Shown piece after piece: positions 8,013 through 59,388 of a stretch of DNA of 64,000 nt. The notes under the pieces are model-generated. The model was not told the origin of the DNA. It saw nothing but the letters and a program-made list of their open reading frames with translations, and did not search any database. The DNA is from a virus. A program made the translations under genes and the position numbers. The DNA lies in IMG/VR virus record IMGVR_UViG_3300035696_000001; one strand, 5' to 3'. Numbering within the stretch: the first letter of the stretch is position 1; every line of letters starts with the position of its first letter.

Positions 8013-8725
8013 AGTTTGTACCCAGACTCCTGTGCGTCGCGGTAAAACATCCGCACGGTCTCAAGGGAGTATTCGTCGAGGTCTTTGCCCACAAGCGGGA
8101 GCTTTTTCAGGATGTCGGTCGTCGCCGTGATGATGTGGCATCCGACCGCGTCGGCTTGGAATACGTTCAGGAGTTCTCGCGGGGACGCCCAAAGGAGTTC
8201 GGCGTTGGGCGCGACGGAGTTGATGCGTCGCACCGCCTCCGCCATCTCTGGCACGGGGTCGCGCCCGGTGTCTGCGATGCGCCCCGCGAAAACGGAGATG
8301 TAGGCTGGAGCGCCGCCCGTCAGTGCGTCGCAGCACTGATCGACCTGCTCCAAGGTCATGAGAGCGGTCACGTTGACCTTGATGCCGTCGTGGGACAACT
8401 TGTCTACCAAACCGTAGGATTCGACGCCACGAGTATCGGTAACGGGGATTTTGACATAGACATTGCCTCCCCATGAAGCGATCTTGAGCGCCTGTGCTTG
8501 CATCGAGGCGTAATCGTCCGCGAGTACTTCGAAAGAGACGGGACGATCCGGCACGGATTCCAGTAGGTCTTTCGCGAAGGCTTCGTAATCCTTGATGCCA
8601 GCCTTGCGCATCAAGGTAGGATTTGTCGTGAAACCTTTAATGACGGGGTTCTTGTAAAGCTCCAGAATCGTAGCCTTGTCGGCACCGTCGCCGAAGATTT
8701 TCACTTTCAAATCGGTTACGTTCAC
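8009..8725 (-). CDS. tal: Transaldolase / fructose-6-phosphate aldolase family
   Basis: GFTTNPTL signature and ISVFAGRI. Start assigned to the GTG at 8725, in a GTGA overlap with the upstream stop. The ORF-track 5' extension is Arg-rich junk. Confidence 0.75.
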   Translation of the reverse strand: MNVTDLKVKIFGDGADKATILELYKNPVIKGFTTNPTLMRKAGIKDYEAFAKDLLESVPDRPVSFEVLADDYASMQAQALKIASWGGNVYVKIPVTDTRGVESYGLVDKLSHDGIKVNVTALMTLEQVDQCCDALTGGAPAYISVFAGRIADTGRDPVPEMAEAVRRINSVAPNAELLWASPRELLNVFQADAVGCHIITATTDILKKLPLVGKDLDEYSLETVRMFYRDAQESGYKL

Positions 8726-9825
8726 GGCTTGTCTCCCCGCAGAATCCAGCCCACAGCCTCTCTGAGGGATAGTACCGTGGCATCCGGCGTCGTTTCTGGG
8801 GTTTCGTTGCTGGATTCGATGAACACCGTTTTGCAGCCCGCTGCTTTGCCAGCAATGACATCTCGCCAATAGTCGCCGACCATGTAGCTGGAACCAAGGT
8901 CGATATTGAACGCCTCGGCAGCGAGCGCAAGCATGCCCGGCTTCGGCTTCCGGCAGCCGCAACCATCCTCATCGGAATGGTAGCAAACGTAAATGCGGTC
9001 TATGGGGAGTTCGGCAAGTAGCCTCTCGTTCACAGCTTCGACGAGGCTCCTTTTCACGAGACCTCGACCCACGTCGGGTTGATTCGTGACAACGATAAGC
9101 CTGTAGCCTGCTTCCTTGAGGTTGGCGAGGAGGGCCGCTGCTCCGGGAACGATTCTCAACTCCTCGACGGACTTGGGCGGAAACCGGTCCTCGGTCAGGG
9201 TGCCGTCTCGGTCTAAGAATACCGCCCGCTGGGGAAGCATGGACTCCCACTTGGTTTGTGCTTGCTTCAGAAGGGGATGGGAAACGAGGAGATGCCAAAC
9301 CACGGCCTGGAACGCCTCCGAGTGGGGCGTCACGCGGTCCGGGTTCGCCGTGGGGATTACGACGCATGCGTCCGCGACCTTGGCTGTGTACCCGCCGTCC
9401 CGCCCCACGATGCCCACCACGCGGCTCCCGACGCTTCTGGCGTAGTCTATGGCGGACACCAAGTTGGGGCTGACGTTCCTTTCCGCATCGCCTCCGCCCA
9501 CGGATAGAATCAAAAGCGTGTCCGTGGCTTTCAGGCGGCTGCCCCTGAGCCAAGCCGCGAAGACAGTCGCCCACCCTTCGTCGTTGGTTCTGGCTGTCAG
9601 TTCCGCGACGTTGTCGGTGGGGGCGTAGGCTTCGATCCCGGCTATCTTGCGGAAGTCGTTGACAGCGTGGGAAGCGTTGGCGGCGCTGCCCCCCACGCCC
9701 AAAACAAAGAGCCGACCGTTTTTGCGTGTGTCGGCGAGAATCTCAGCGCTGCGCTCTATCGCATCGAGGTCCAGCGCGGCGGCAATCTGCTGCACTTCCT
9801 CAAGGAAGAGTCTCGAAAAACTCAT
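8722..9825 (-). CDS. gmhA-gmhB: Bifunctional sedoheptulose-7-P isomerase (GmhA, SIS) / D,D-heptose-1,7-bisphosphate phosphatase (GmhB, HAD) fusion
   Basis: N-terminal SIS domain LFVLGVGGSAANASH. C-terminal HAD domain with FLDRDGTLTED and VVTNQ. Confidence 0.75.
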   Translation of the reverse strand: MSFSRLFLEEVQQIAAALDLDAIERSAEILADTRKNGRLFVLGVGGSAANASHAVNDFRKIAGIEAYAPTDNVAELTARTNDEGWATVFAAWLRGSRLKATDTLLILSVGGGDAERNVSPNLVSAIDYARSVGSRVVGIVGRDGGYTAKVADACVVIPTANPDRVTPHSEAFQAVVWHLLVSHPLLKQAQTKWESMLPQRAVFLDRDGTLTEDRFPPKSVEELRIVPGAAALLANLKEAGYRLIVVTNQPDVGRGLVKRSLVEAVNERLLAELPIDRIYVCYHSDEDGCGCRKPKPGMLALAAEAFNIDLGSSYMVGDYWRDVIAGKAAGCKTVFIESSNETPETTPDATVLSLREAVGWILRGDKP

Positions 9826-22749: not shown

Positions 22750-24174
22750 ATGGCATCACTCAACGCTGCAACCCGTACCGCAAAGACCCCGCTCCGCACC
22801 GCCGAGGGCGGCAGGGCGGTCGGCATCGGCAAGGTCGCGCAGCTTCAGCGCCTGCTGAACGCCTGCCTCCTGTGGGAGGACAACTTCTACTCGGACGGCA
22901 AGAGCGTCGCCGACCTCATGCGCGAGCTTGTGCGCGAAGTCCCAGCCGAGAAGGTCGCGGAGCTTGCGATCAAGGCCCGCGAGGAGCAGAAGCTCCGCCA
23001 TGCCCCGCTGCTCATCGTCTACGAGATGACGCTCGCCTCGAAGGCTCACCGCGAGCTTGTCGGGGAGACGCTCACCCGCGTGATCCAGCGCCCGGACGAG
23101 ATCACCGAGTTCGTCGCCATCTACTACAAGCTCGGCGGCGGGAAGCGCCCGCTCTCGAAGCAGGTCAAGAAGGGCCTTGCCGCTGCCTTCAACAAGTTCA
23201 ACGAGTATGCGCTCGCAAAGTACAACCGCGACAAGGACGTCAAGCTCGCGGACGTGCTGGCGCTCGTCCACGCCAAGCCGAAGGACAGGGAGCAGGGCCT
23301 CCTCTTCGCGAAGCTTGCGAACAAGGACCGCCTGCCGAAGAAGACCAAGTTCGCGCAGTTCCCGGTGGCCGACACCTACCGCTCGCTCGCGAAGAACTTC
23401 AAGGGTCTGGAGACCCCGGACACTTGGGAGGTCGCGCTCTCTGGCGGCGCGGACAAGAAGGAGGCCTTCGAGCGCCTCATCCGCGAGGACAAGCTCGGCG
23501 GCCTCGCGATGATCCGCAACCTGCGCAACATGCAGGAGGCGGGCGTCTCCGACGCGGTCATCAAGCAGGGCCTTGCGCAGATGAACGCCGAGCGCGTGCT
23601 CCCGTTCCGCTTCATCGCGGCGGCGAAGTACGCCCCGAAGTTCGAGGCGCACCTTGAGGAGGCGATGTTCAAGTGCCTTGAGGGGCACCCGAAGCTGCCG
23701 GGCAAGACCGTGCTGCTCGTGGACGTTTCCGGCTCGATGGATCAGCATGTTTCCTCGAAGTCCGACCTGATGCGCGTGGACGCTGCCGTCGCCCTTGCGA
23801 TGCTCCTCCGCGAGGTCGGCGAGGACGTGGTCGTGTATTCGTTCTCGGAACGGGAAGTCCTCGTCCCGACCCGGCGCGGGTTCGCCCTCGCCGAGGCGAT
23901 CAAGGGGTCGCAGCCCCATTCGGGCACGTACCTCGGCCGCTCCGTGACCGCCGTTGCCCGCGCCGAGGGCGACGCCGACCGCGTCATCGCGATCTCGGAC
24001 GAGCAGGCGCACGACAACGTCTCGAACCCATTCCGCAAGACCGAGTCGAAGGCGTACATGATAAACGTGGCAAGCGAAGCTCACGGAGTCGGATACCGTA
24101 ATGGTTGGAATCACATCGATGGATGGTCTGAGGCTGTGGTAGACTACGTAGTTGCTGAAGAGGCAACAAAATAG
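22750..24174 (+). CDS. rsr: Ro60/Rsr ortholog (TROVE domain + vWA/MIDAS)
   Basis: N-terminal TROVE-like region (LLWEDNFYSDGKSVAD..HAPLLIVYEM). C-terminal vWA domain with the MIDAS motif VLLVDVSGSMD. The overlapping ORFs 22743..23657 and 22756..24114(-) are frame artefacts. Confidence 0.8.
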   Translation: MASLNAATRTAKTPLRTAEGGRAVGIGKVAQLQRLLNACLLWEDNFYSDGKSVADLMRELVREVPAEKVAELAIKAREEQKLRHAPLLIVYEMTLASKAHRELVGETLTRVIQRPDEITEFVAIYYKLGGGKRPLSKQVKKGLAAAFNKFNEYALAKYNRDKDVKLADVLALVHAKPKDREQGLLFAKLANKDRLPKKTKFAQFPVADTYRSLAKNFKGLETPDTWEVALSGGADKKEAFERLIREDKLGGLAMIRNLRNMQEAGVSDAVIKQGLAQMNAERVLPFRFIAAAKYAPKFEAHLEEAMFKCLEGHPKLPGKTVLLVDVSGSMDQHVSSKSDLMRVDAAVALAMLLREVGEDVVVYSFSEREVLVPTRRGFALAEAIKGSQPHSGTYLGRSVTAVARAEGDADRVIAISDEQAHDNVSNPFRKTESKAYMINVASEAHGVGYRNGWNHIDGWSEAVVDYVVAEEATK

Positions 24175-29816: not shown

Positions 29817-30902
29817 GTGGGCGAGTTTACCGAGCAACGGTTTGATTATTCTGCGGGACGCGAAGATGCCCCTGAATTGACTATTATGGTGGGGATCAGC
29901 GGCTCGGGGAAATCTACGCTCGTTAAGCAATGGATAAACCGTGGGCGTGGCGACATCGTGCGCCTGAACCGGGACAGCTTGCGTGCCATGCTGTATATAG
30001 ATGTGCCTTGGAGTAATAATTTGGAGAACTTAACGCGTGACGTGCAAAAGCACGCTGCGATTTTAGCGCTCCAACGGGGTAAGGATGTGATTATTGATGA
30101 TTGTAATCATCTTCGTCAAGTTCGTCAAAAATGGGAAGAGTTTGCCAAGGAAAACCGGGCGAAGTTTCGTATCGTAACAATGACTACAGACCTCGACGTT
30201 TGCATCAAGCGGGATTCCAAGCGCGAGGGTAAGGAAAAAGTTGGCGAGGGTGTGATTCGCCGCCAGTACAAGGATTTGCATGCTTTGGACAGGACTTCTA
30301 GGAAGGAAACGGCTCCGGCGAAGCTGACCCGCCCGTACTTCGAGCGCACCGAGTACCTCAAGAACGGTGGGTGGGTCACCCGCCTGCCCAACGCCAAGTG
30401 GGTGCTGGTGGACGTTGACGGCACGCTGGCGAACCATGTCGGCGTGCGCGGCCCCTACGACGAGTCCCGAGTGCTTGAGGATTCGGTGTGGGAGCCTGTC
30501 GCCGAGATGGTGCGCTCGCTGTACCCTAGCCACAACGTCTGCGTGGTGTCCGGCCGCCACGACTTTTGCGGCGACGACACGTGCGACTGGCTGGAGATGA
30601 ACGCCGTCCCGTTCGACCACATACTGATGCGGTACAGCGGGGACAACCGCTCTGACATTGTCATCAAGCAGGAGCTTCTCGACGAGCTTTCGGCGGTGAT
30701 CGGCAAGGAGAGCATAGCGTTCGTGATCGACGACCGCCCTCGGGTCTGCGAGATGTGGAGGAGCAACGGCCTCGCGGTGAAGCAGGTTTTCGCCGGGGAG
30801 GTCTTGGAAAACCCGACTCTTAAACATGCGGACGGATGCGCCTATGAGAAGCAAACGGGCTACCGGCGCTGCCCGGACTGCGGGGCTTTAGAGTATTTTT
30901 AG
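29817..30902 (+). CDS. pnkp: Polynucleotide kinase-phosphatase (T4 Pnk/PseT-like)
   Basis: N-terminal P-loop kinase GISGSGKST. C-terminal HAD 3'-phosphatase LVDVDGTLA..VVSGR. Same domain order as T4 Pnk. GTG start with GGAGG SD. Confidence 0.8.
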   Translation: MGEFTEQRFDYSAGREDAPELTIMVGISGSGKSTLVKQWINRGRGDIVRLNRDSLRAMLYIDVPWSNNLENLTRDVQKHAAILALQRGKDVIIDDCNHLRQVRQKWEEFAKENRAKFRIVTMTTDLDVCIKRDSKREGKEKVGEGVIRRQYKDLHALDRTSRKETAPAKLTRPYFERTEYLKNGGWVTRLPNAKWVLVDVDGTLANHVGVRGPYDESRVLEDSVWEPVAEMVRSLYPSHNVCVVSGRHDFCGDDTCDWLEMNAVPFDHILMRYSGDNRSDIVIKQELLDELSAVIGKESIAFVIDDRPRVCEMWRSNGLAVKQVFAGEVLENPTLKHADGCAYEKQTGYRRCPDCGALEYF

Positions 30903-32315: not shown

Positions 32316-33434
32316 ATGAAGCTTTTACTCAAGAATATCCTGCCCTTCGACCTGTTCAGGCGCATGCTTGACGAGGGATACGTCCGCTCGCAGGTGCATC
32401 CCCTTTATCCTGAGTTGGTTGTCTTCAACTACACCGAGGCGGCCCAATTTGACCGTGCGTGGAATGAGGCGACCAACGTGTGCCGCGGCCTGGTCGTGCG
32501 GCTCGCAAACGGCGTGCTGGACGACGACGCCGAGGTGTTGGCGCGGCCTTTCAACAAGTTCCATAACCTGAACACTGCCTACGTGCCGGAGACTATGGAG
32601 GCGAGCCTGCCGGACGAGGCACCGCTTGTGACCACGAAGCTTGACGGCTCGATGGGCATCGTGTATTCGTACGACGGTCAATGGTGGGTCGCGACTCGCG
32701 GGTCGTTCGACTCGGATCAGGCACGCCGGGCGACAGCGTGGTACCGCCAGCACATAGCCGTGGGGTTTCCCCAGAACTGGCCCGACGGCGTTACGCCCGT
32801 GTGCGAGATCATCTACCCGGAGAACCGGATCGTCGTGGACTACGACTTCGAAGGATTGGTGTTGCTCTCGATGATCGAGAACGCAACCGGGCGCGAGCTT
32901 GCCCGCGACGAGGTGGAGGCATGGGCGAGAGTCAACGTGCTCCAGATCGTTGATAAGTTTGACAAGACGCTAGCGGAGTGCGCGGCTGAGAACGCGCTGA
33001 ACGAGGAGGGGTACGTTTTGACTTACTCGAACGGCGTGAAGGTGAAGGTGAAGTTCGCGGAGTACGTGCGGCTCCACCGCATCCTTACTGGGTTGAACCC
33101 GAAGGCGATCTGGGAGATGCTTGCCCAGAATTTCGGGGCGGGGGTGGATGCGATCCTTGCAGACCCGAAGATGCCCGTCACCTTCATCGAATGGTTCAAG
33201 GGGTGGGTGGATCAGCTTCGCAGGAAGTACGCGGAGATCGAGCGGGAGGCGCAGGCTGTGTTCGCCGCGCGTCCGCAGTCGCCCGTCCGCAAGGATCAGG
33301 CGCTCTACTTCATGCAGACGCCGCAGCACAAGTCTGTCCTGTTCGCAATGCTCGACGGCAAGGACTACGCCGGGATCATTTGGGACCGCATTGCGCCGAA
33401 GGGCAACCAGACGTTCAAGAAGGACGGAGAATAA
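32316..33434 (+). CDS. rnl: RNA ligase (T4 Rnl-like, ATP-dependent)
   Basis: Motif I TTKLDGSMG (KxDG), motif IV EEGYVL and motif V VKVKVKF. Partner of Pnkp. Confidence 0.7.
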   Translation: MKLLLKNILPFDLFRRMLDEGYVRSQVHPLYPELVVFNYTEAAQFDRAWNEATNVCRGLVVRLANGVLDDDAEVLARPFNKFHNLNTAYVPETMEASLPDEAPLVTTKLDGSMGIVYSYDGQWWVATRGSFDSDQARRATAWYRQHIAVGFPQNWPDGVTPVCEIIYPENRIVVDYDFEGLVLLSMIENATGRELARDEVEAWARVNVLQIVDKFDKTLAECAAENALNEEGYVLTYSNGVKVKVKFAEYVRLHRILTGLNPKAIWEMLAQNFGAGVDAILADPKMPVTFIEWFKGWVDQLRRKYAEIEREAQAVFAARPQSPVRKDQALYFMQTPQHKSVLFAMLDGKDYAGIIWDRIAPKGNQTFKKDGE

Positions 33435-33618: not shown

Positions 33619-34995
33619 ATGAAGAAATCTACGGTCTTTTGGATGGTCGTGGCCGCCCTCGCTGTCCGCATCGCTTTCATGGTGGCGTTTGATACGTATC
33701 ACTTCGTTGGCGTAGACGACATGACCAAGGTCGGTGAAACGACGAACATCGCGGCGTCCATCGCCAGGGGGCACGGATTCAGTTCACCGTTCGGCGGCGA
33801 ATACACGGGGCCGACAGCTTGGATTGCCCCCGTCTATCCGTACTTCATTGCCCTTGTGTTCCACTTCTTTGGGATATTCTCGAACGCCTCAGCGGCAGTC
33901 GTTTTCACGATTCAAGCACTGTTTTCCGCCTTGACTGTCATTCCGATTTTGGGCATCGCCAATAAAACTGTCGGGAAGCGTTCCGGTTTGGTAGCCGCTT
34001 GGACATGGACTCTTTTCCCTTGGTTTAGCAAATGGGCATTAACTTGGGAGTGGGAAGTCAGCTTGAGTGCGTTGCTCCTCTCCTTAATCGTTTGGTACAT
34101 GCTCAGTCTGGAAAAGGCAGCCGCCGTTAAGTCGTGGGCTGGGTTTGGAATCCTAGAGGGATTCGCTCAGCTAGTCAATCCGGCACTGAGCGCCGTTCTC
34201 CCGGTTGCATTTGCGTGGCAGGTCTACAAACTGCGATTCAACCGCAAAGAGTGACTCAAGCCGGTCGTGGCGCTGCTGGCGTGCGTCGCCACAATAACAC
34301 CTTGGGTAGTGCGAAATCGCGTTGTGTTCGGACAATGGGTGTTCCTGCGCGGCAACTTCGGTTACGAGTTCGCCCTTGGCAACTACCATAACAGCTTCGG
34401 GCGCGGGTGGGGAGGGTTTCACCCTTCGGGTAACTTGCGCGAATACGACGACTACAAGCGCATGGGCGAGGCGGCTTACATCGAATCCCATAAAGAAAAA
34501 GGCCTCCAGTTTGTGCGCCAGTACCCGGTTGAATTCGTTACGCTAACAGCGAAACGGGTTTCCTACTTTTGGGATGGGAGCGCCGTCGGTTACCGGGCAC
34601 CCGTCGCCAAGCATTGGATTCCGTCCAGCTTCGGCGTGATCTCATTATTGCTGCTTCCAGCCCTGCTGATTACGTACAGGAATCGGGTACCGGCATGGCA
34701 AGCGTTCTTCGGTGTGTTTCTGCTGTACCCGGCACCCTATTATCTTACGTTCAGTCAATTGCGTTACCGGCACGCCGTTGAGCCTCTCATGGTAATTCTA
34801 ATCTCTTACGCCGTGGTCAACGCCATAACTGCGATCTATCAAAGTTTTTTAGGTTTGCGTCTTCCTAGCCTTTTCGGGGGACTCCGCTGTATACTACCGA
34901 CGAAAGCAGCGACGTCTGCGGCACCCGCTGCCCGAAGTCGGAGAAATCCGAAGGGCAAACGTCCTGCAAATTTTATGCTCAAGGACTCGTTATGA
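33619..34995 (+). pseudogene. GT-C fold membrane glycosyltransferase (ArnT/PMT-like) interrupted by a single in-frame TGA at 34252
   Basis: ORFs 33619..34254 and 34267..34995 are in the same frame, separated only by TGA 34252..34254 (NRKE*LKPVVALLA). Together ~455 aa with multiple TM helices and a first-loop VGVDD..GE acidic motif, typical of ArnT/PMT_2. May be a readthrough/recoded gene, a pseudogene or a sequencing error. Confidence 0.45.
34876..34896 (+). promoter_or_regulatory. Repeated promoter-like motif copy 2 (GGGGGACTCCGCTGTATACTA)
   Basis: Same 30-nt element as 33571..33600. Lies ~95 nt upstream of the CCA-enzyme gene start. Confidence 0.3.
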
Positions 34996-36317
34996 GTTGG
35001 AAGCGAGAAAATTTCATCTCGTCATTCCAGATTGCCGCGCACGCCAAGGTGATGTACAAGCTTGAAAACAAGGGCTTCGAAGCTTTCCTTGTCGGCGGCT
35101 GCGTGCGCGACCGGCTTCTCCAACGGCAATCCAGGGACTTCGATGTGACGACCGACGCCACGCCCGACCAGATTCGTGCCATCTTCCCTCACACCATCCC
35201 GGTCGGCGCGAAGTTCGGCGTCGTGGTCGTGCTGATGGACGGCGTGCAGGTCGAAGTTGCAACGTTTCGAAGCGACGGGACTTACACTGACGGTCGGCGA
35301 CCGGACGAAGTCACGTACAGCAGGAACGCAAAGGATGACGTCGTCCGCCGCGATTTCACCATGAACGGCTTGCTCATGGACTCCCTCGGCGACATTATCG
35401 ACCACGTTGACGGTCAGGAAGACATCAAGCACGGAATCATCCGCGCCATCGGCGACCCAAACGTGCGCTTCGCGGAGGATGCGCTCCGCATGATGCGGGC
35501 TGTCCGCTTCGCGGCGCAGCTTGGCTTCAAGATCGAGGAAAAGACCCTTGAAGCGATCAAGAGCAACGCCCGGCTCCTGTCCGCCATCAGCCGGGAGCGC
35601 ATCGCGATGGAGCTTTTCAAGATGCTTTCCGCGCCGTTTCCGCTCAAGGGGATCGTGCCTTTCATTGCGACGGGGCTGTTCCGCTATGCCTTGCCGGAGC
35701 AGTTCCCCGACCATGTGAACATGGCGCGAACCATACAGCGGTTCGGCACGTTCGAGGCGAAGGACGCCATGCTCGGCATGGCTATGCTATTCGCCGACAT
35801 CAACGACTTCTACTGTGGGGGGCTTGCGGATTACCTCAAGCTGTCCAACGAGCAAAAAGACGAGCTTATTTGCATGAAGAGCCACGTTCATAATTTCCAG
35901 CACCACTTAACCGGGGCGTACCGCATGACTGAGGCGCGGATCAAACGCAACCTGCGGTATCCGGGCGTCAGGCTGGCGCTGGAGATCATGACGCAGGACG
36001 AGGTCATGGGCAAGACCGGCTTCGGCATCGAGGCGCTGATGGCGTTCGTGCTCAAGGTCAAGGCGTACAAACCCGAGGAGATCAAGCCGAAGCCGCTGGT
36101 GACGGGCAAGGACTTGATTGACGCTGGCATCCCACCGGGGCCGATCTATACGAGCATCCTGTTCGACATTGAGAGCCACCAGCTTAACGGCGTGTTCACG
36201 ACGAAGGAGCAGGGCATGGAGTTCGTCCGCGAGCGCGTACGCCAAGGAGCGGGTCTGCATGGGCTTGAGTGGGTTTATACGGGCTTGTCCGCAACGGAAG
36301 CGCGGGAGCTAGAATGA
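34992..36317 (+). CDS. cca: tRNA nucleotidyltransferase (CCA-adding enzyme), class II
   Basis: Head-domain motifs LVGGCVRDRLL, RDFDVTTDA, VATFRSDG and DVVRRDFTMNGL (RRD). Confidence 0.8.
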   Translation: MSWKRENFISSFQIAAHAKVMYKLENKGFEAFLVGGCVRDRLLQRQSRDFDVTTDATPDQIRAIFPHTIPVGAKFGVVVVLMDGVQVEVATFRSDGTYTDGRRPDEVTYSRNAKDDVVRRDFTMNGLLMDSLGDIIDHVDGQEDIKHGIIRAIGDPNVRFAEDALRMMRAVRFAAQLGFKIEEKTLEAIKSNARLLSAISRERIAMELFKMLSAPFPLKGIVPFIATGLFRYALPEQFPDHVNMARTIQRFGTFEAKDAMLGMAMLFADINDFYCGGLADYLKLSNEQKDELICMKSHVHNFQHHLTGAYRMTEARIKRNLRYPGVRLALEIMTQDEVMGKTGFGIEALMAFVLKVKAYKPEEIKPKPLVTGKDLIDAGIPPGPIYTSILFDIESHQLNGVFTTKEQGMEFVRERVRQGAGLHGLEWVYTGLSATEARELE

Positions 36318-49944: not shown

Positions 49945-50625
49945 GTGAACAATTGGTATGACATCCTAAAAATGACCCAAGTCGGTCACAGGCTTTTCGT
50001 GGGCGGATACGCCCAAGCGACGGACTTGGCCAAGGACAATCCCCACAAGATCACTGCGGTTTTGTGCGTCCATCAGGTGATGGACTACCCCAAAGACCCC
50101 GGCATTGTCTACATGCACATCCCGTTCGCTGACGGCGAGGGCATTCCGCCCAAGGTGTTTGTGAGATGCCTCGGCTGGCTGAAGTACATGTACGAGAACG
50201 GGCATACGATCTACATCCACTGCGCCGCTGGCATTTCCCGGTCGGTGGCGATAATGGCAGCCTTCATGCACTACGAGGGCATTGCGGAATTCAACGAGGC
50301 GCTCGACCAAATTCGCCTGTGCCGCCCGAACGCCAGCCCCGCGCCGAACGTGCTCAATTCCGCGAGGCAGATGCTGGGCGTGTACCCCTACGACGGGTCA
50401 TATGACGCCGAGCCGGAACACCAGAAAGCTGTTCACAGCGATCTGATCGAAGCAGCGCAAAACCGCCGTGCCGCCGAGCAGCACCCGGACGAGAATTGTC
50501 CGATGCGGCAGTTTCTCCTGTCGGGAACGGAAAGCAACGTGCCGCGCCACGAGATTCCTTGTTCCTGCGAGTCGCTCCAAACGCCGCTGGACATCGCAAG
50601 GCAGAAGGACGAAGCACCCCAATGA
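49945..50625 (+). CDS. Dual-specificity protein phosphatase (DUSP, CX5R)
   Basis: Active-site P-loop IHCAAGISRSVAIMAAFM. Confidence 0.8.
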   Translation: MNNWYDILKMTQVGHRLFVGGYAQATDLAKDNPHKITAVLCVHQVMDYPKDPGIVYMHIPFADGEGIPPKVFVRCLGWLKYMYENGHTIYIHCAAGISRSVAIMAAFMHYEGIAEFNEALDQIRLCRPNASPAPNVLNSARQMLGVYPYDGSYDAEPEHQKAVHSDLIEAAQNRRAAEQHPDENCPMRQFLLSGTESNVPRHEIPCSCESLQTPLDIARQKDEAPQ

Positions 50626-50799
50626 GCATTGGGCTATGCCCTACGGGCGAGCATTACGACGACTGGTGCTGCAAGGTGCACGACCACGGCATCGAGGACG
50701 CTCTTTGCGTTTGCGATGAGCTTCGGGAAAATGCTGAGGATTTTGCCAGGGCGCTAAAGACCGCCTTCTCTCCCCGTCGCATCAAACCCAGTGGGAGCA

Positions 50800-51440
50800 A
50801 TGGTGACACCTGAACAAATCCTCGACGAAGCCTTCGACAACGAAGGCGTTGCCCAGAACCATCGCGACGACATCAAAGCCTACCTTCATGCCCTGAAGAA
50901 CCGCGACCCGAAGACCTATGAGCACAGCATCCGCGTCGGCGTGCTGGCCAGCAGGGTTGCTCTTTATGCCGCCAAGCCGGGAATCAGCGCGAGGATGCTC
51001 CTCTGGGCTGGGTTGCTGCACGACATAGGCAAGACTCTCGTCCGCCCGGAAGTCCTCACCAAGACGTCGAACTTCACGCAAGAGGACTACGCCGCCATAG
51101 AGCCGCATGTCCAGTACGGCTGGGACATGCTGAATCGCGTCCACGACTGGACGGCGTACATCATCGTTAGGCACCACCAGTTCAGGGCTAAACCCTATCC
51201 CGCCGAGCTTCCCCCGCTGCCGGAGTACCTGCGCGACAAAGCCGAGATAATCCAAGTTGCCGCCCGCCTGTGTTGGCGCTTGCAGATTTTTTTGACGCCC
51301 TCACCCACAGGGATAACGACAGGAACGGCAACAAGCCCTTTACAGCTAGGGAAAAACGCGAAATCTACATGCGGGATAACGCCGACCAGAGAGAACTCAT
51401 TGAGCTTCTTGAATCAGTTGGCGTGCTGAAGTTCTCATGA
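50800..51440 (+). CDS. HD-GYP/HDIG-type HD-domain phosphohydrolase with apparent frameshift near 51270-51285
   Basis: YEHSIRVG..LLHDIGK..HHQ in frame A up to ~51280. The canonical C-terminal IADFFDALTHRDNDRNGNKPF..REIYM continues in the -1 frame, which ends at TGA 51438..51440. No single intact frame covers both parts. Confidence 0.5.
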
Positions 51441-51683
51441 CGCAAGACGAATGGCGGGAAATCATAGAGATTCTTTTTGACCATTGGAACCCGTTCCCGA
51501 GCCGGTCTTATTGTGAAAAAGTGGGCTGGGAGGCGAATCCAGACGGCACCGTCGAAACACCGTTCGGATGCATCCCCACCAGCGACCTTTGCGAAATCCG
51601 GGAGCTTGAAGCGTTATACCGAAAATGACCCTAGCCAAGCGAATAAGACTGTTTTTCAGGCGCTTAGGTAGGGGAAAACCTGC

Positions 51684-52154
51684 ATGGCAGTAGAAATCAA
51701 AGCGCCCGGAAAGTACGATACCTCAGCACGCTACACGATCTTCCTTGCAGGAGCCATAGACCAAGGGAAGGCGGAGAACTGGCAGGAAAAGGTCGTCCGA
51801 GCGCTGGATGAGTTTGACGTCACCGTTCTGAACCCACGTCGGGACGACTGGGACGACTCTTGGGAACAGACTGCCGATAATCCTCAGTTTCGGGAGCAAG
51901 TAGAATGGGAGCTTGATGCGCAAGAAGCGGCTGATATGATCGTTTTCGTTTTTACCGCCGACTCGAAGGCCCCGATCACCTTCCTTGAATTCGGGCTGTT
52001 CGCCCCGAAGAAGGACGCGGTGGTCTGCGCCGAGGAGGGCTTCTACAGGCAGGGGAACCTCGACATCGTGGCCGAGCGCCACAAGGTGTCGATGTACCAC
52101 AACCTCGACGAGATGATAGCCGATCTGCAAACAGTTTTGAGGGAGAAGGCTTGA
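51684..52154 (+). CDS. Nucleoside 2-deoxyribosyltransferase-like protein
   Basis: YTIFLAGAIDQG N-terminus and FLEFGLFAPKKDAVVC with a candidate catalytic Glu. Weak family assignment. Confidence 0.4.
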   Translation: MAVEIKAPGKYDTSARYTIFLAGAIDQGKAENWQEKVVRALDEFDVTVLNPRRDDWDDSWEQTADNPQFREQVEWELDAQEAADMIVFVFTADSKAPITFLEFGLFAPKKDAVVCAEEGFYRQGNLDIVAERHKVSMYHNLDEMIADLQTVLREKA

Positions 52155-52984
52155 TGGGCCAGATGGTGTATGTCTTGACGACTTTCGAGGGCACCGGCAA
52201 GCACAAGGAATGGAGACCCGTGGCCGTGGTCTCCAACCCTGACCTCGCGAGCCAGTGGTACGAGTACGGCACGAACGTTGACTGGATTCCGTTTGAGCTT
52301 GACGACGTCAAGAACATCTCGCCGGAAAACATGCCGACCTTCCACCCCCGCGAAACCACGCCCGGCGAGGCGAGAGCCATCGAACTTAGCAAAAAGATGG
52401 AGGCGACGATCCAGCGGATGCAGAAGATCATCGACGACCAGGAAGCGCTCATCAAGAAGCTGACGCGGGGGAAGAAAGCCGGGCACGAGTCGATGCTAAA
52501 AGGCGTCAATGTACTGAACATCTCAGACCCGGAGAACCCAGCCCCCAACCCTTTCGTCCACAACTCGGGGACTGCCGAGGAGGATACAATCCCGCCAAAG
52601 CCGATGGAAGGCGGTTCGCGACCATTTCCCCCGACGTTGGACGCGCAAGGGATCGCCGATTACATCGAGACCTACGCGGTGTACCCGGTGGACAACGAGT
52701 TCGTGTACGAGAAGTTCCGGGGCAGCCACGCAGTTCTCAAGCTGGTGCCGATAGCCAGCCTCCGCGAGGGCGGTCGCGAGCAGAATCTCCGAAGCAAGAA
52801 GATCGAGGACAAGTACCTGAAGCAGAGTCTCAAGACGCAGCCCCCCGCCGTGGTCGAGGACGGGGAGGTCTTGGACGGCAACCACAGGCTCCGAGCCAAC
52901 AAGCGGAGGGGTTTGACGCACATGTGGTGCTATGTTGTTATGGGGGATGAGAATGGTGACACTGACGCCAACGGCAGTAATTAA
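52151..52984 (+). CDS. ParB-like nuclease domain protein
   Basis: C-terminal VVEDGEVLDGNHRLRANKRRG (DGxHR ParB N-terminal-domain motif). Confidence 0.5.
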   Translation: MMGQMVYVLTTFEGTGKHKEWRPVAVVSNPDLASQWYEYGTNVDWIPFELDDVKNISPENMPTFHPRETTPGEARAIELSKKMEATIQRMQKIIDDQEALIKKLTRGKKAGHESMLKGVNVLNISDPENPAPNPFVHNSGTAEEDTIPPKPMEGGSRPFPPTLDAQGIADYIETYAVYPVDNEFVYEKFRGSHAVLKLVPIASLREGGREQNLRSKKIEDKYLKQSLKTQPPAVVEDGEVLDGNHRLRANKRRGLTHMWCYVVMGDENGDTDANGSN

Positions 52985-53282
52985 GATCAAGCAGATCGCG
53001 GAGCAGCAAGACCCGAAGCCTCCTGCGGTGCGCATCGGCGTGCGCGGCGGGGGATGCAGTGGTTTTAGCTACGCCATGGCGTTCGACCCTGAGCCTGCTG
53101 CGGGCGAAAATGACAACGAGTTCGACCTCGACGGCTTGAAGGTGCGGGTGGACAACATGTCGGCCATGTACCTTGAAGGCTGCGAGATCGACTACGTGGA
53201 GGCGCTGGACGGCGCGGGCTTCAAGTTCAACAACCCGAACGTGAAGAGCACGTGCGGCTGCGGAAGCTCGTTCAGCGTATAA
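52953..53282 (+). CDS. iscA: IscA/ErpA-type Fe-S cluster insertion protein
   Basis: RIGVRGGGCSGFSY...NPNVKSTCGCGSSFSV carries the three conserved Cys. Start at the internal Met MVTLTP with GGGGGATGAGA SD. Confidence 0.8.
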   Translation: MVTLTPTAVIKIKQIAEQQDPKPPAVRIGVRGGGCSGFSYAMAFDPEPAAGENDNEFDLDGLKVRVDNMSAMYLEGCEIDYVEALDGAGFKFNNPNVKSTCGCGSSFSV

Positions 53283-53954: not shown

Positions 53955-54286
53955 TCGGCGCGGGCACACACATCCCAACTCCGAAGGACGCCCCCACGGG
54001 GGGCTGGGACACGGGGGGCTGGGACACGGGGGGCTGGGACAACATGTACTGCTACAGCGTGCCCGCGACGCCTGAGCGCCCAGACCCACGCAAAAACCCC
54101 AAGAATTGGGCGCTGTGGTTCCGGGAATTCCTGGCGCTGGTCTGCCTCCGTTGTGAACAGCCCACAATTCGAGCTACGAGGATCGTTTATGATTGGCTCG
54201 CCGGGCAAGTGCGCTGCCGATCCGGCACCCTGCCGACCCGTGAATGGAAAATGAAGGATTGGGTTCAAGCGCTGAGAGCTTCCTGA
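53951..54286 (+). CDS. Hypothetical protein with GGWDT x3 repeat
   Basis: ATGA-coupled. Encodes TGGWDTGGWDTGGWDN from a 15-bp tandem repeat. Confidence 0.4.
   Translation: MIGAGTHIPTPKDAPTGGWDTGGWDTGGWDNMYCYSVPATPERPDPRKNPKNWALWFREFLALVCLRCEQPTIRATRIVYDWLAGQVRCRSGTLPTREWKMKDWVQALRAS
53996..54045. repeat. 15-bp tandem repeat x3 (GGGGGGCTGGGACAC)
   Basis: Direct perfect repeats visible in the sequence, lying in-frame within the CDS 53951..54286. Confidence 0.8.
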
Positions 54287-54666
54287 TGGCGTACAGCGAA
54301 AAAGTTCTGGATCATTACAACAACCCCCGCAATGTGGGTTCGCTGGACAAGTCCAGCCCGGATGTGGGCACGGGCTTGGTCGGAGCGCCGGAGTGCGGGG
54401 ACGTGATGAAGCTTCAGATCAGGGTAAACGGAGCCGGGGTCATCGAGGACGCCAAGTTCAAGACCTTCGGCTGCGGCTCGGCAATTGCCTCGTCCTCGCT
54501 TGCGACCGAGTGGGTCAAGGGCAAGACCGTGGACGAGGCGCTCCAGATCAGGAACACCGAGATCGTCAGGGAGCTTTCCCTTCCCCCGGTCAAGATTCAC
54601 TGCTCAGTGCTTGCCGAAGACGCGATCAAGGCCGCCATTGCGGATTGGAAGAATAAAAAACAGTAG
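54286..54666 (+). CDS. iscU: IscU Fe-S cluster scaffold protein
   Basis: MAYSEKVLDHYNNPRNVGS...GAPECGDVMKLQI...FGCGSAIASSSL...PPVKIHCSVLAEDAIKAAIADWK. Near-collinear with E. coli IscU (~75-80% identity by eye), including the three Cys and LPPVK. Confidence 0.9.
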   Translation: MAYSEKVLDHYNNPRNVGSLDKSSPDVGTGLVGAPECGDVMKLQIRVNGAGVIEDAKFKTFGCGSAIASSSLATEWVKGKTVDEALQIRNTEIVRELSLPPVKIHCSVLAEDAIKAAIADWKNKKQ

Positions 54667-56488: not shown

Positions 56489-56986
56489 ATGGTGGACGAC
56501 CGTACCTACCTCGATACCTGCTATGAGTACGCCAAACAGACCACGTGCGTAAAGGCGCGGGTTGGCGCTTTGGTGGTATCTGCCGGTCAAGTTGTTGGCG
56601 CAGGTTACAATCACCCGCCTAATGTTGCGTTCCTCGACTGCGCCAAACTGTGCGCCGGAGGCATCAGGCAGGGCGTCAAGTCCGGCACCCGACTGGAATT
56701 GTGTTACGCCGTCCACGCTGAGCAGTGGGCTATCCATGAGGCGGGCCCGCTTGCCAAGGGCGCGACGCTGTACGTCGCCTCGTTCGATGACAGGTGGAAC
56801 AAGCGCCTGAAGGATTCTTCCCTCCCGCTGGGGCACCCCATGCATTCTTTCTATTGTTCGATGTGTGCCCGCGCCTGCTGGATGGCGGGCATCGACCGCA
56901 TCGTCACTGACGGCGTCAGCGGCATCGTGGAGTTCACCCCCGAGGAAATCTGGAAAACGTCATACGGCGTTGCCGGGAGTATTTGA
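56489..56986 (+). CDS. Cytidine/deoxycytidylate deaminase family protein
   Basis: HAEQWAI (HxE zinc-ligand motif) and SFYCSMCARA (CxxC). Confidence 0.6.
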   Translation: MVDDRTYLDTCYEYAKQTTCVKARVGALVVSAGQVVGAGYNHPPNVAFLDCAKLCAGGIRQGVKSGTRLELCYAVHAEQWAIHEAGPLAKGATLYVASFDDRWNKRLKDSSLPLGHPMHSFYCSMCARACWMAGIDRIVTDGVSGIVEFTPEEIWKTSYGVAGSI

Positions 56987-57470: not shown

Positions 57471-58246
57471 AAACAAAGCGTCCGGTAAACCAAGGAGCGG
57501 AGGAATTTCTTTACGTTGAGATTCCTGTCTTAGACAAGGGGTATATAAAGCTTGTGGATTACATGGGCAACGACGACTCGGTTGTGGGTGCCGCACGGGT
57601 CAGCTATGCGAAAACCGCCAACCCCGAGGAGGCGGAGAAGAACGCCAAGCTCATTAGCTACCTGATGCGGCATAAGCACACGTCGCCGTTCGAGCAATGC
57701 ATCCTGACCTTCGAGTGCAAAATGCCCATTTTCGTGGCCCGGGAGTGGGTCAGGCACCGCACCGCGAGGCTGAACGAGATGTCGGGGCGCTATACCCAGC
57801 TTCCCCAAGAAGTCTATACCCCCAGCCGCGAACGCATAATGGGGCAGGACAAGGCGAACAAGCAGGGAAGCGCAGGCGAAGTATCTGAAGACATTAAAGA
57901 CAGCTTTTTGGCGACGCACGGCTCCGCCACTCAAGAAGTCTTTCAACATTATCAAGCCTACATCGACGGCGGCATCGCCAAGGAGGTCGCCCGGATCGAC
58001 CTCCCGCTGAGCACCTACACGAAATGGATATGGCAGATGGACTTGCACAACCTGTTCCACTTTCTCCAGCTTCGGATGGCCCCGAACGCACAGTGGGAAA
58101 TCAGGCAGTACGCGAACGCAATCGCCCAAGTCGTGGAGAAAAGCTTCCCCGCCGCCTGGGACGCCTTCCAAGAGCACGTTTTGAATGCCGTGACTATACC
58201 GATTGCCGAGTACCGACAATTGACAGAGCGCAGAGGAGACAAATAG
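57467..58246 (+). CDS. thyX: Flavin-dependent thymidylate synthase ThyX
   Basis: ThyX motif RHRTARLNEMSGRY. GTG start in a GTGA overlap with the Nudix gene. The ORF-track 5' extension is junk. Confidence 0.85.
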   Translation: MKTKRPVNQGAEEFLYVEIPVLDKGYIKLVDYMGNDDSVVGAARVSYAKTANPEEAEKNAKLISYLMRHKHTSPFEQCILTFECKMPIFVAREWVRHRTARLNEMSGRYTQLPQEVYTPSRERIMGQDKANKQGSAGEVSEDIKDSFLATHGSATQEVFQHYQAYIDGGIAKEVARIDLPLSTYTKWIWQMDLHNLFHFLQLRMAPNAQWEIRQYANAIAQVVEKSFPAAWDAFQEHVLNAVTIPIAEYRQLTERRGDK

Positions 58247-59388
58247 TGCCTGCGAAGATTAAAAGTCTTGTGGGGCAAACTTTTGGCGAACTTACTGTGG
58301 TTCGCATGGGCGAGCGTACCGGCAAAAGAAATCGAGTGACTTGGGTGTGTCGTTGTTCGTGCGGAAATGAGGTACAAGTAACCGCTTCTAACCTCATAAG
58401 AGCGGGGAAATTCAGCCATACGTGTAAGAATCATGCTGGATATGGGCTTGTGGGAAAACGTTTTGATCGTTTATTTGTGCTTCGTCGCTCGACAAAACGC
58501 ACGCGATATGGCGGGGCGTACTGGGAGTGTCGCTGCGATTGCGGGAATACCGCTGTTGTCTTAAAACAAGCTCTTATTAACGGTTCTATACGATCCTGTG
58601 GCTGTCTGAAAAAGGAGAAAGAGACTAGGTTTGAGGGCATAAGCGGTAATTATTGGGGTTCCCTAAAGGCAAGCGCTCTAAAACGCAGACTAGAGTTTTC
58701 TATCAGCATTAAGCAAGCATGGGACTTATACAACAGCCAGAAGGCCCGTTGCGCCTTGTCTGGGGTACCGATTTTGTTTGGGCATAATCAAACAGCATCA
58801 CTGGATAGGGTTGATAGCAACCTTGGCTATGTGTTGGGGAACGTGCAATGGCTTCACAAGGATGTGAACAGAATTAAAAGCGATTTTTCGGAGTTCGATC
58901 TTACCCAATGGTGCGCCAGAATTTATTTGACTTCTTTGAAGAACTTGAACGGAGACGACAAGTGGGATATGAGGTTTTTGCAGCTAGCCAGATTTATGGC
59001 CTCATTCTCCAAAGACCCGTCCACGCAAACGGGGGCGGCTATAATTCGCCCCGACCGAACTGTAGTGTCTGTGGGCTATAATGGGCTTGCTCGCGGGGTA
59101 CAGGACAGCCCTGAACGTCTCAATAACCGTGAGATCAAATACAAAGTTATCTGCCATTGCGAACGCAATGCCATTGTGTTTGCTCGGCAAGACGTAGGCG
59201 GATGTACTCTATATACGTGGCCCTTCATGTCGTGTGCGGCTTGTGCTGCTATAGTCATCCAAGCCGGGATCAAGCGCTGCGTAGCCCCGCGCAACGACAA
59301 TCCCCGCTGGCAGGAAGACTTCAAGCTGGCGCAGCAGCAGTTCGCCGAAGCCGGAGTGACGATGGACTTTACCGACTCTATGGAGTAG
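58246..59388 (+). CDS. HNH endonuclease fused in-frame to dCMP deaminase
   Basis: GTG start in a TAGTG overlap. N-terminal ~230 aa carry two FGxLTV..W.CRC.CG modules and an HNH motif (paralog of 24240..24785), in lower-GC DNA. C-terminal ~150 aa are a dCMP-deaminase domain (AAIIRPDRTVVSVGYNG, HCERNAI, SCAACAAIVIQAGIKR) in high-GC DNA. Confidence 0.6.
   Translation: MPAKIKSLVGQTFGELTVVRMGERTGKRNRVTWVCRCSCGNEVQVTASNLIRAGKFSHTCKNHAGYGLVGKRFDRLFVLRRSTKRTRYGGAYWECRCDCGNTAVVLKQALINGSIRSCGCLKKEKETRFEGISGNYWGSLKASALKRRLEFSISIKQAWDLYNSQKARCALSGVPILFGHNQTASLDRVDSNLGYVLGNVQWLHKDVNRIKSDFSEFDLTQWCARIYLTSLKNLNGDDKWDMRFLQLARFMASFSKDPSTQTGAAIIRPDRTVVSVGYNGLARGVQDSPERLNNREIKYKVICHCERNAIVFARQDVGGCTLYTWPFMSCAACAAIVIQAGIKRCVAPRNDNPRWQEDFKLAQQQFAEAGVTMDFTDSME

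Follow-up and report, generated by a model that had tools for sequence, protein, structure and literature searches.

The window analysed here was a stretch of 64,000 nucleotides (64 kb) from an uncultivated huge phage, in which a phosphohydrolase gene of the HD-GYP type appeared to be divided between two reading frames. Three explanations were offered in the initial annotation of this locus, namely, a sequencing indel, a real pseudogene and programmed frameshifting. Which of the three accounts for the divided gene, and what the division means for its product, was the question addressed.

The features of the locus are summarized in Table 1. The ORF of the HD gene (50800..51429, + strand) was opened by the ATG at 50800, with GTG alternatives at 50791 and 50803, and the Shine-Dalgarno-like GGGAG was located at 50793-50797 before the ATG. 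In the original frame (frame A), the translation was ...TYEHSIRVG...LLHDIGK...RHHQFRAKPYP...IIQVAARL, followed by 51 unrelated codons, and the frame-A product has a length of 208 aa. The residues H42, H74-D75, H103 and H125-H126, together with the PYP loop, were all encoded in the 5' part, which shared 83% identity with the intact relatives. The conserved C-terminal block (LALADFFDALTHRD...GVLKFS) was located in the -1 frame and stopped at 51440. In these respects the layout agreed with the initial annotation, which had described the HD motifs in one frame, approximately 50 junk codons behind them and the downstream block in the -1 frame ending at 51440; its spelling of the block as IADFFDAL differed trivially from the LADFFDAL of the sequence. 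The -1-frame ORF (51270..51440) reads (V)LALADFFDALTHRDNDRNGNKPFTAREKREIYMRDNADQRELIELLESVGVLKFS, and the GTG at 51270 opened this ORF right at the junction. The invariant D162, D165, A166 and R170 and the two C-terminal helices were encoded by 51273..51440. The initial reading had been made to depend on the significance of the second-frame similarity, and this similarity was far above chance, as the 56-aa piece of the -1 frame alone shared 78% identity with the C-terminus of the homolog P0069 (E=9e-33). Moreover, both frames were joined at 51270-51273 by tblastn with the intact relatives (E ~3e-98). The frame-A tail had no similarity to the family according to hhalign (probability 0.1%).

Table 1. 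Features of the HD gene and its immediate surroundings in the window.
Feature	Position	Strand	Description
Dual-specificity phosphatase (DSPc) gene, intact	49945..50625	+	Pfam DSPc; 79-84% identity to relatives
Lineage-specific 63-aa ORF, Cys-rich (CPTGEHYDDWCCKVHDHGIEDALCVCDEL)	50622-50813	+	No family match
HD gene, 5' part	50800..51270	+	Original frame (frame A), codons 1-157, MVTPEQ...IIQVAARL
Lesion	51271..51272	+	Two extra bases, TG tandem duplication, CTG[TG]TTG
Out-of-frame tail of the translated ORF	51271..51429	+	51 codons, CWRLQ...NQLAC (CWRLQIFLTPSP...NQLAC), TGA 51427-51429
HD gene, 3' part, now out of frame	51273..51440	+	LALADFFDALTHRDNDRNGNKPF...GVLKFS, TGA 51438-51440
T TTT TTG heptamer	51288..51294	+	In frame-A phase; 16 nt downstream of the lesion
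Lineage-specific 63-aa ORF	51437..51628	+	No family match; absent from L007 and L011
Nucleoside 2-deoxyribosyltransferase-like gene (PF15891), intact	51684..52154	+	85% identity to relatives

The nature of the lesion was determined from a codon alignment with four intact relatives (L007, L011, L010 and L013), in which the window carried exactly two extra bases. The relatives read GCC GCC CGC CTG|TTG/CTx GCx xTx GCx GAT, which corresponds to AARL-LA(L/M)AD, and the window reads GCC GCC CGC CTG TG TTG GCG CTT GCA GAT. The context of the lesion, CTGTGTTG, was that of a TG tandem duplication and not of a homopolymer slip. As a consequence of the 2-nt insertion, all downstream codons lie in the -1 frame, and removal of the TG yielded a 212-aa protein collinear with the family. 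The break, which had been placed near 51270-51285, was thus located at 51271-51272. The earlier description of an internal -1 frameshift remains valid for the downstream block, which does lie in the -1 frame, and requires refinement for the lesion, which was a +2 TG duplication and not the loss of 1 nt.

The repaired protein had 126 homologs, most of which were approximately 211 aa in length with 100% coverage and identities of up to 81%, and more than 100 relatives of this length were read through in a single frame. In the alignment of 45 sequences (A2), the residues H42, R45, H74, D75, G77, K78, H103, H125, H126, Y133, P134, D162, D165, A166 and R170 were invariant. The frame-A product matched Pfam HD (PF01966) with 45 bits at a cutoff of 22 (E=1.5e-11), which identified it as a member of the HD superfamily; the final Asp of the superfamily, D162, was encoded in the -1 frame only. 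For the HD-GYP model HD_5 (PF13487), with which an alignment had been recommended, the repaired protein scored 33.4 bits and the frame-A product 27.2 bits, that is, exactly the gathering cutoff of 27.2. All 45 family members matched both Pfam HD and HD_5, with a best HD_5 E value of 9.9e-13. According to hmmsearch of the family profile against the PDB, the matches were 4mcw (PmGH, 1.8e-18), 5z7c (V-cGAP3, 9.2e-13), 4r8z (PA4781, 5.5e-08) and 9rbz (4.7e-06), and the profile alignment to PmGH and V-cGAP3 continued through aDyyDAl/sDvFDAL. An AlphaFold model of the closest intact homolog had a pLDDT of 94, and the best Foldseek matches of this model were 4mcw, 4r8z and 9rbz, followed by the PgpH HD domain. 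Hence, the placement of the gene in the HD-GYP branch of the HD superfamily was supported by Pfam HD_5, by the PDB profile and by the fold, and the HD-GYP-type identity proposed at the outset held with one refinement. The signature HHExxDGxGYP was degenerate, being HHQFGxxPYP in the family and HHQFRAKPYP in the window, with only HH and YP retained. The gene was therefore classified as HD-GYP-related rather than as canonical HD-GYP.

Frameshifts in metagenome assemblies are often artefacts, and an intact allele of the same strain was not at hand for comparison; both points would fit an error of sequencing or assembly, with a single-frame gene in the true genome. The exact frameshifted protein (P0027/P0121/P0122) was, against this reading, also found in the ENA assemblies ERZ27256985, ERZ27256913 and ERZ27256877 (196-kb contig), in Logan SRR9711195 and SRR9711196 and in JGI 3300034091. 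The broken allele was thus present in at least six assemblies besides the window, whose read sets and assembly pipelines differed (ENA k141 contigs, Logan, JGI), and the DNA of the gene was 100% identical to that of the window in all copies (L001-L006). An in-frame 15-bp indel at 53995-54009 (CACGGGGGGCTGGGA), which falls within a small gene of unknown function, set the three ENA assemblies apart from the copies in the window, Logan and JGI. The ENA contigs differ by this indel yet carry the TG insertion, indicating that the lesion exists on two haplotypes. The site itself is not a homopolymer, and no other frameshifted gene was observed in the 36 kb of comparable sequence. Because the same allele recurred in at least six assemblies, on two haplotypes and with different pipelines, a sequencing or assembly artefact is very unlikely; we give such an error hardly any chance, and the sequencing indel suggested initially is contradicted by these copies.

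The ERZ and SRR numbers of the six assemblies are consecutive, and some of the assemblies may be re-assemblies of the same runs. For this reason they may come from one site or project, so that they prove the reproducibility of the lesion and not its geographic spread. A literature search on the sample accessions of the six assemblies returned nothing. The evidence consists of assembled contigs, and a minority intact allele may occur beside the broken one. The junction with 0-3 inserted bases had no match in the JGI metagenome_contigs and IMG/VR collections, which evidently do not hold this genome. In the split-gene audit, for which approximately 36 kb of the window was comparable with relatives, the HD gene was the only true two-frame case. 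The other two-frame candidates of the audit were rejected as antisense shadow ORFs of L011 or as a fused ORF in L034. The latter was a single 419-aa frame at ~10579-11835 of L034, corresponding to 8030-9243 (-) of the window and spanning two window genes (the C-terminal half of 8722-9825 plus 8030-8731). The window gene 8722-9825 was of full length against 80 relatives, and it is in L034, not in the window, that two genes have fused or a frameshift has occurred.

Programmed frameshifting was the next explanation to be weighed. Rescue of the full-length protein, either by a programmed -1 ribosomal frameshift or by +1 transcriptional slippage at the T7 run, would have to take place at the T TTT TTG heptamer, which was the only conceivable -1 slip site. 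This heptamer is in phase with frame A and precedes any frame-A stop, and its T7 run is specific to the lineage of the window, because the relatives have TAT TAT or TAT TTT; the run resulted from Y164F (TAT->TTT). Furthermore, the -1 frame was fully retained, as expected were it still translated, although a young lesion explains the retained frame equally well. Several observations spoke against rescue. A conserved two-frame layout was absent, as none of the more than 100 relatives, which are single ORFs of ~211 aa, used two frames. No slippery X XXY YYZ sequence was present at the frame junction (GCC CGC CTG TGT TGG), and the search for a slippery heptamer suggested by the initial annotation gave only the in-phase T TTT TTG downstream. 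The RNA of 51255-51380 folded with -33.9 kcal/mol (z=-0.5), and 62 of 200 shuffles folded at least as well; an internal Shine-Dalgarno-like stimulator was likewise not present. A -1 slip at the heptamer would produce AARL-CWRLQIFL-DALTHRD, in which LALADFF is replaced by CWRLQIF(L/F). The slipped product would have one extra residue and would still lack D162, and the enzyme would therefore not be restored.

Given the single-frame relatives, the lack of a slippery site at the lesion and the lack of significant structure, programmed FRAMESHIFTING was not supported, and recoding is regarded as very improbable; the corresponding alternative of the initial annotation is contradicted by the same three observations. 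An equally far-fetched variant holds that the TG insertion is tolerated through T7 slippage and that the result would be a full-length, catalytically dead HD-GYP fold, with the metal-binding LALAD segment changed to CWRLQI, which might bind cyclic-nucleotide immune signals or serve as a "sponge" for them instead of hydrolysing them. Among the three explanations offered at the outset, a real mutation that produced a pseudogene was the sole survivor.

Both conserved neighbours, the phosphatase and the deoxyribosyltransferase-like gene, were intact. The order of phosphatase, HD gene and deoxyribosyltransferase-like gene was conserved in L007, L011, L014 and L113. A longer order was found on contigs of 447-465 kb, with SNF2 helicase ... 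phosphatase, HD gene, deoxyribosyltransferase-like gene, Fe-S genes, ThyX and dCMP deaminase. The HD gene was located in a nucleotide-metabolism block that includes the deoxyribosyltransferase-like gene, dCMP deaminase, ThyX and NUDIX. The ancestral stop of the HD gene overlaps the ATG of the small ORF that follows (ATGA, 51437-51440), and the frame-A stop lies 8 nt before this ATG, so little polar effect is expected. The small ORF upstream of the HD gene stands where the phosphatase of the relatives has its C-terminal tail. As the phosphatase is shorter here (226 aa vs 249 aa in relatives), a further frameshift was suspected in it and ruled out, because the protein aligns to PRHEIPCSC and then ends earlier, with the unrelated 63-aa ORF following. 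No homology was detected between this small ORF, which lies between the phosphatase and HD genes, and its counterpart in L113. The promoter and terminator scan around the HD gene gave nothing above shuffle expectation.

The closest relative was an IMG/VR viral genome of 170 kb. More distant homologs were present on seven contigs of 447-465 kb (P0014, P0057, P0064, P0068, P0086, P0090 and P0105), which are presumably near-complete huge-phage genomes. The cluster record of P0121 lists a contig of 894,233 bp for the frameshifted protein, and the longest contig returned by the locus look-up was 196,020 bp; the former might represent a concatemer, a scaffold of a bin or a genome of very large size. 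Apart from the window gene, the family had a single broken copy, P0117 (L014 3730-3745, ENA ERZ25039509 contig_132017; 55% identity), in which both the lesion and its site differ from those of the window. This copy shares the synteny of phosphatase, HD gene and deoxyribosyltransferase-like gene and carries a 1-nt insertion, tacCggg, after HHQY. The name of the L014 contig suggests a different, possibly long-read, assembly, for which reason the frameshift may be an error of long-read assembly; alternatively, the gene could have been lost independently a second time. The most distant member was P0119 (38% identity; L114/L115 6001-6663, GCA_964599615.1 CAZRGF010000006.1), whose contig is cellular and carries genes for ribosomal proteins of archaeal type (S19e, L31e); on this contig, it directly follows a CYTH-domain gene. 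This setting points tentatively to cells as the source of the phage family and to a context of nucleotide signals.

The effect of the insertion on the product was evaluated with the model of the intact homolog. The long helix 142-169 spans the lesion, and the break at residue 157/158 falls in the middle of it. The translated product lacks D162, D165, A166 and R170 and the last two helices. In PmGH, the counterpart of D162, which lies in the ADxxDA helix, is the first Asp of SDVFDAL, and by a residue count this Asp is assigned as the metal ligand D305; D162 is thus a predicted metal ligand. In the AlphaFold model of the frame-A product, residues 171-197 had pLDDT values below 50 and the tail was predicted to be disordered, and the core was still modelled confidently. 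With D162, D165, R170 and the last two helices lost, the broken enzyme is most likely inactive, judging from the invariant residues that are missing from the sequence.

Even so, a truncated or split product might still be useful in one of two ways. The 157-aa HD core with its new tail might serve as a non-catalytic nucleotide binder, or the C-terminal 56 aa might be re-initiated at the GTG at 51270 and complement the core in trans. The five conserved His/Asp ligands that remain in frame A, the confident modelling of the core, the GTG that starts the -1 ORF exactly at the junction and the fixation of the allele in all sampled genomes of the strain would all be compatible with such a use. However, no Shine-Dalgarno-like sequence precedes the GTG at 51270 (GTTGCCGCCCGCCT), whereas the neighbouring starts at 50800 and 51684 have one. 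The break also falls within a core helix, the new tail is predicted to be disordered, and fixation, in perhaps a single population, is equally expected from neutral or hitch-hiking loss. A useful product is hence considered improbable, though less so than recoding.

The age of the lesion was examined by comparison with the relatives. The dN/dS of the C-terminal part was 0.07-0.19, equal to that of intact pairs (0.065-0.175), in a comparison of 54 codons with low power. The ratio of C-terminal to N-terminal divergence was 1.00, compared with 0.95±0.09 in the family, indicating no excess divergence. Departures from conserved columns were found at 3 of 63 positions (M100I, G129R and Y165F), which is inside the family range, and every invariant residue was retained in the -1 frame. 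A -1 frame with all invariant residues and a normal dN/dS argues for a young lesion. The data are consistent with a lesion that would be young when set against how far the nearest sampled relatives have diverged (dS ~1), as far as a test of 54 codons with little power allows.

According to these results, the HD-GYP-related phosphohydrolase gene of this huge-phage lineage is with good probability a young pseudogene, created by a real, fixed and recent inactivating 2-bp insertion. The frame is disrupted in comparison with intact syntenic orthologs, and the disruption was reproduced in six further assemblies and on two haplotypes. In the proposed course of events, the TG tandem duplication (51271-51272) disrupted the gene of a standalone, 211-aa, HD-GYP-related, presumably metal-dependent phosphohydrolase, which a clade of uncultivated huge phages (447-465 kb contigs) otherwise conserves. 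Translation from the ATG at 50800 would then give the HD core up to residue 157/158 and 51 unrelated residues. Such a product would be without D162, D165, R170 and the last two helices and would most likely be enzymatically inactive, and the broken allele would have become fixed in the phage lineage at an evolutionarily young age.

The event is an ordinary one in evolution, and the gene is a new, disrupted member of the HD-GYP-related family. It illustrates cleanly how an accessory gene of a huge phage can be lost, recently and with fixation in the population, and matters little in itself. In the annotation of this genome, the HD gene should be marked as disrupted and not be given as two genes. 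The useful by-product is the intact family, which comprises standalone proteins of 211 aa with HHQFGxxPYP, encoded in ~450-kb phages beside a dual-specificity phosphatase and a deoxyribosyltransferase-like gene, and which may merit biochemical study. The initial annotation had connected the gene with the degradation of c-di-GMP or cyclic oligonucleotide signals. Homology suggests cyclic di- or oligonucleotides as the substrate of the intact enzyme. As the GYP signature is degenerate, c-di-GMP or anti-CBASS activity may be attributed only tentatively, by analogy, even to the intact relatives, and the nucleotide-metabolism neighbourhood leaves room for other substrates too. If it is true that the intact family degrades cyclic-nucleotide immune signals, then the loss in one lineage would mean that this function is dispensable in some hosts.

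Several other features of the window were recorded. PHROG matches in the window comprised an RtcB-like protein, polynucleotide kinase, RNA ligase, CCA-adding enzyme and dCMP deaminase. An RNA-repair set on the + strand (22750-24174, 29817-30902, 32316-33434 and 34992-36317) consisted of an RtcB-like protein, a polynucleotide kinase/phosphatase, an RNA ligase and a CCA-adding tRNA nucleotidyltransferase. No tRNA genes were found in the 64 kb. Fe-S assembly genes (IscA-like PF01521 and NifU_N PF01592) were located at 52953-53282 and 54286-54666 (+), just 3' of the HD gene, and are conserved in the relatives with ~450-kb contigs. The dCMP-deaminase ORF at 58024-59388 (+) contains an HNH-endonuclease segment (aa 134-303, PHROG) ahead of the deaminase (aa 312-447). 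The ORF at this place in L007 and L011 is a plain deaminase of 171 aa, and the window ORF has the appearance of a deaminase into which a homing endonuclease was inserted or with which one was fused. The window has another deaminase, a plain one, at 56489-56986.

The disrupted gene was finally compared with known systems. Genes with a programmed -1 frameshift, such as dnaX, IS3-family transposases and the phage tail chaperone G/GT, resemble the locus in that one conserved protein is encoded in two overlapping frames with a U-rich heptamer nearby. The window gene differs from them because its two-frame layout is kept in no relative and because the shift results from a 2-nt insertion that has neither a slippery sequence nor a stimulatory structure.

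HD-GYP enzymes of jumbo phages have been predicted to counter cyclic di- and oligonucleotide immune signals (Iyer et al., 2021, Viruses 13:63, PMC7824862). The window family likewise represents a phage-encoded enzyme of the HD-GYP type in a very large genome; in contrast to that set, it has no close GenBank phage relative (<34% identity), and the window copy is broken. No match of 50300-52200 was obtained by blastn against GenBank phages, and the only tblastn matches of the homolog P0003 lay in faecal contigs that carry no annotation, at <34% identity. Among viral proteins, the nearest fold match was gp79 of Bacillus phage G, at only E=1.5e-3, and no second HD-GYP-like copy was found within the window.

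Bd1817, the HD-G"Y"P protein of Bdellovibrio (PDB 3TM8), provides a precedent for an HD-GYP fold with a degenerate GYP motif. Its fold match to the window family was weak (E ~0.06), and it is far more distant than PmGH or PA4781. Unlike the window protein, Bd1817 is cellular and has an extra N-terminal domain.

The closest likeness was to the HD-GYP phosphodiesterases PmGH (4MCW), PA4781 (4R8Z), V-cGAP3 (5Z7C), a 3'3'-cGAMP phosphodiesterase, and DvhD (9RBZ). The all-helical HD fold and the ligand pattern H...HD...H...HH...D are shared by these enzymes and the window family. Unlike the known HD-GYP (PF13487) enzymes, the window family is a standalone 211-aa domain without a receiver or sensor domain. 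In its signature, compared with HHExxDGxGYP, Glu is replaced by Gln, DG is gone, the loop is one residue shorter and GYP has become PYP. The residue that we take, from our reading of the alignment, to be the third-metal Glu of PmGH aligns with a variable position in the window family.
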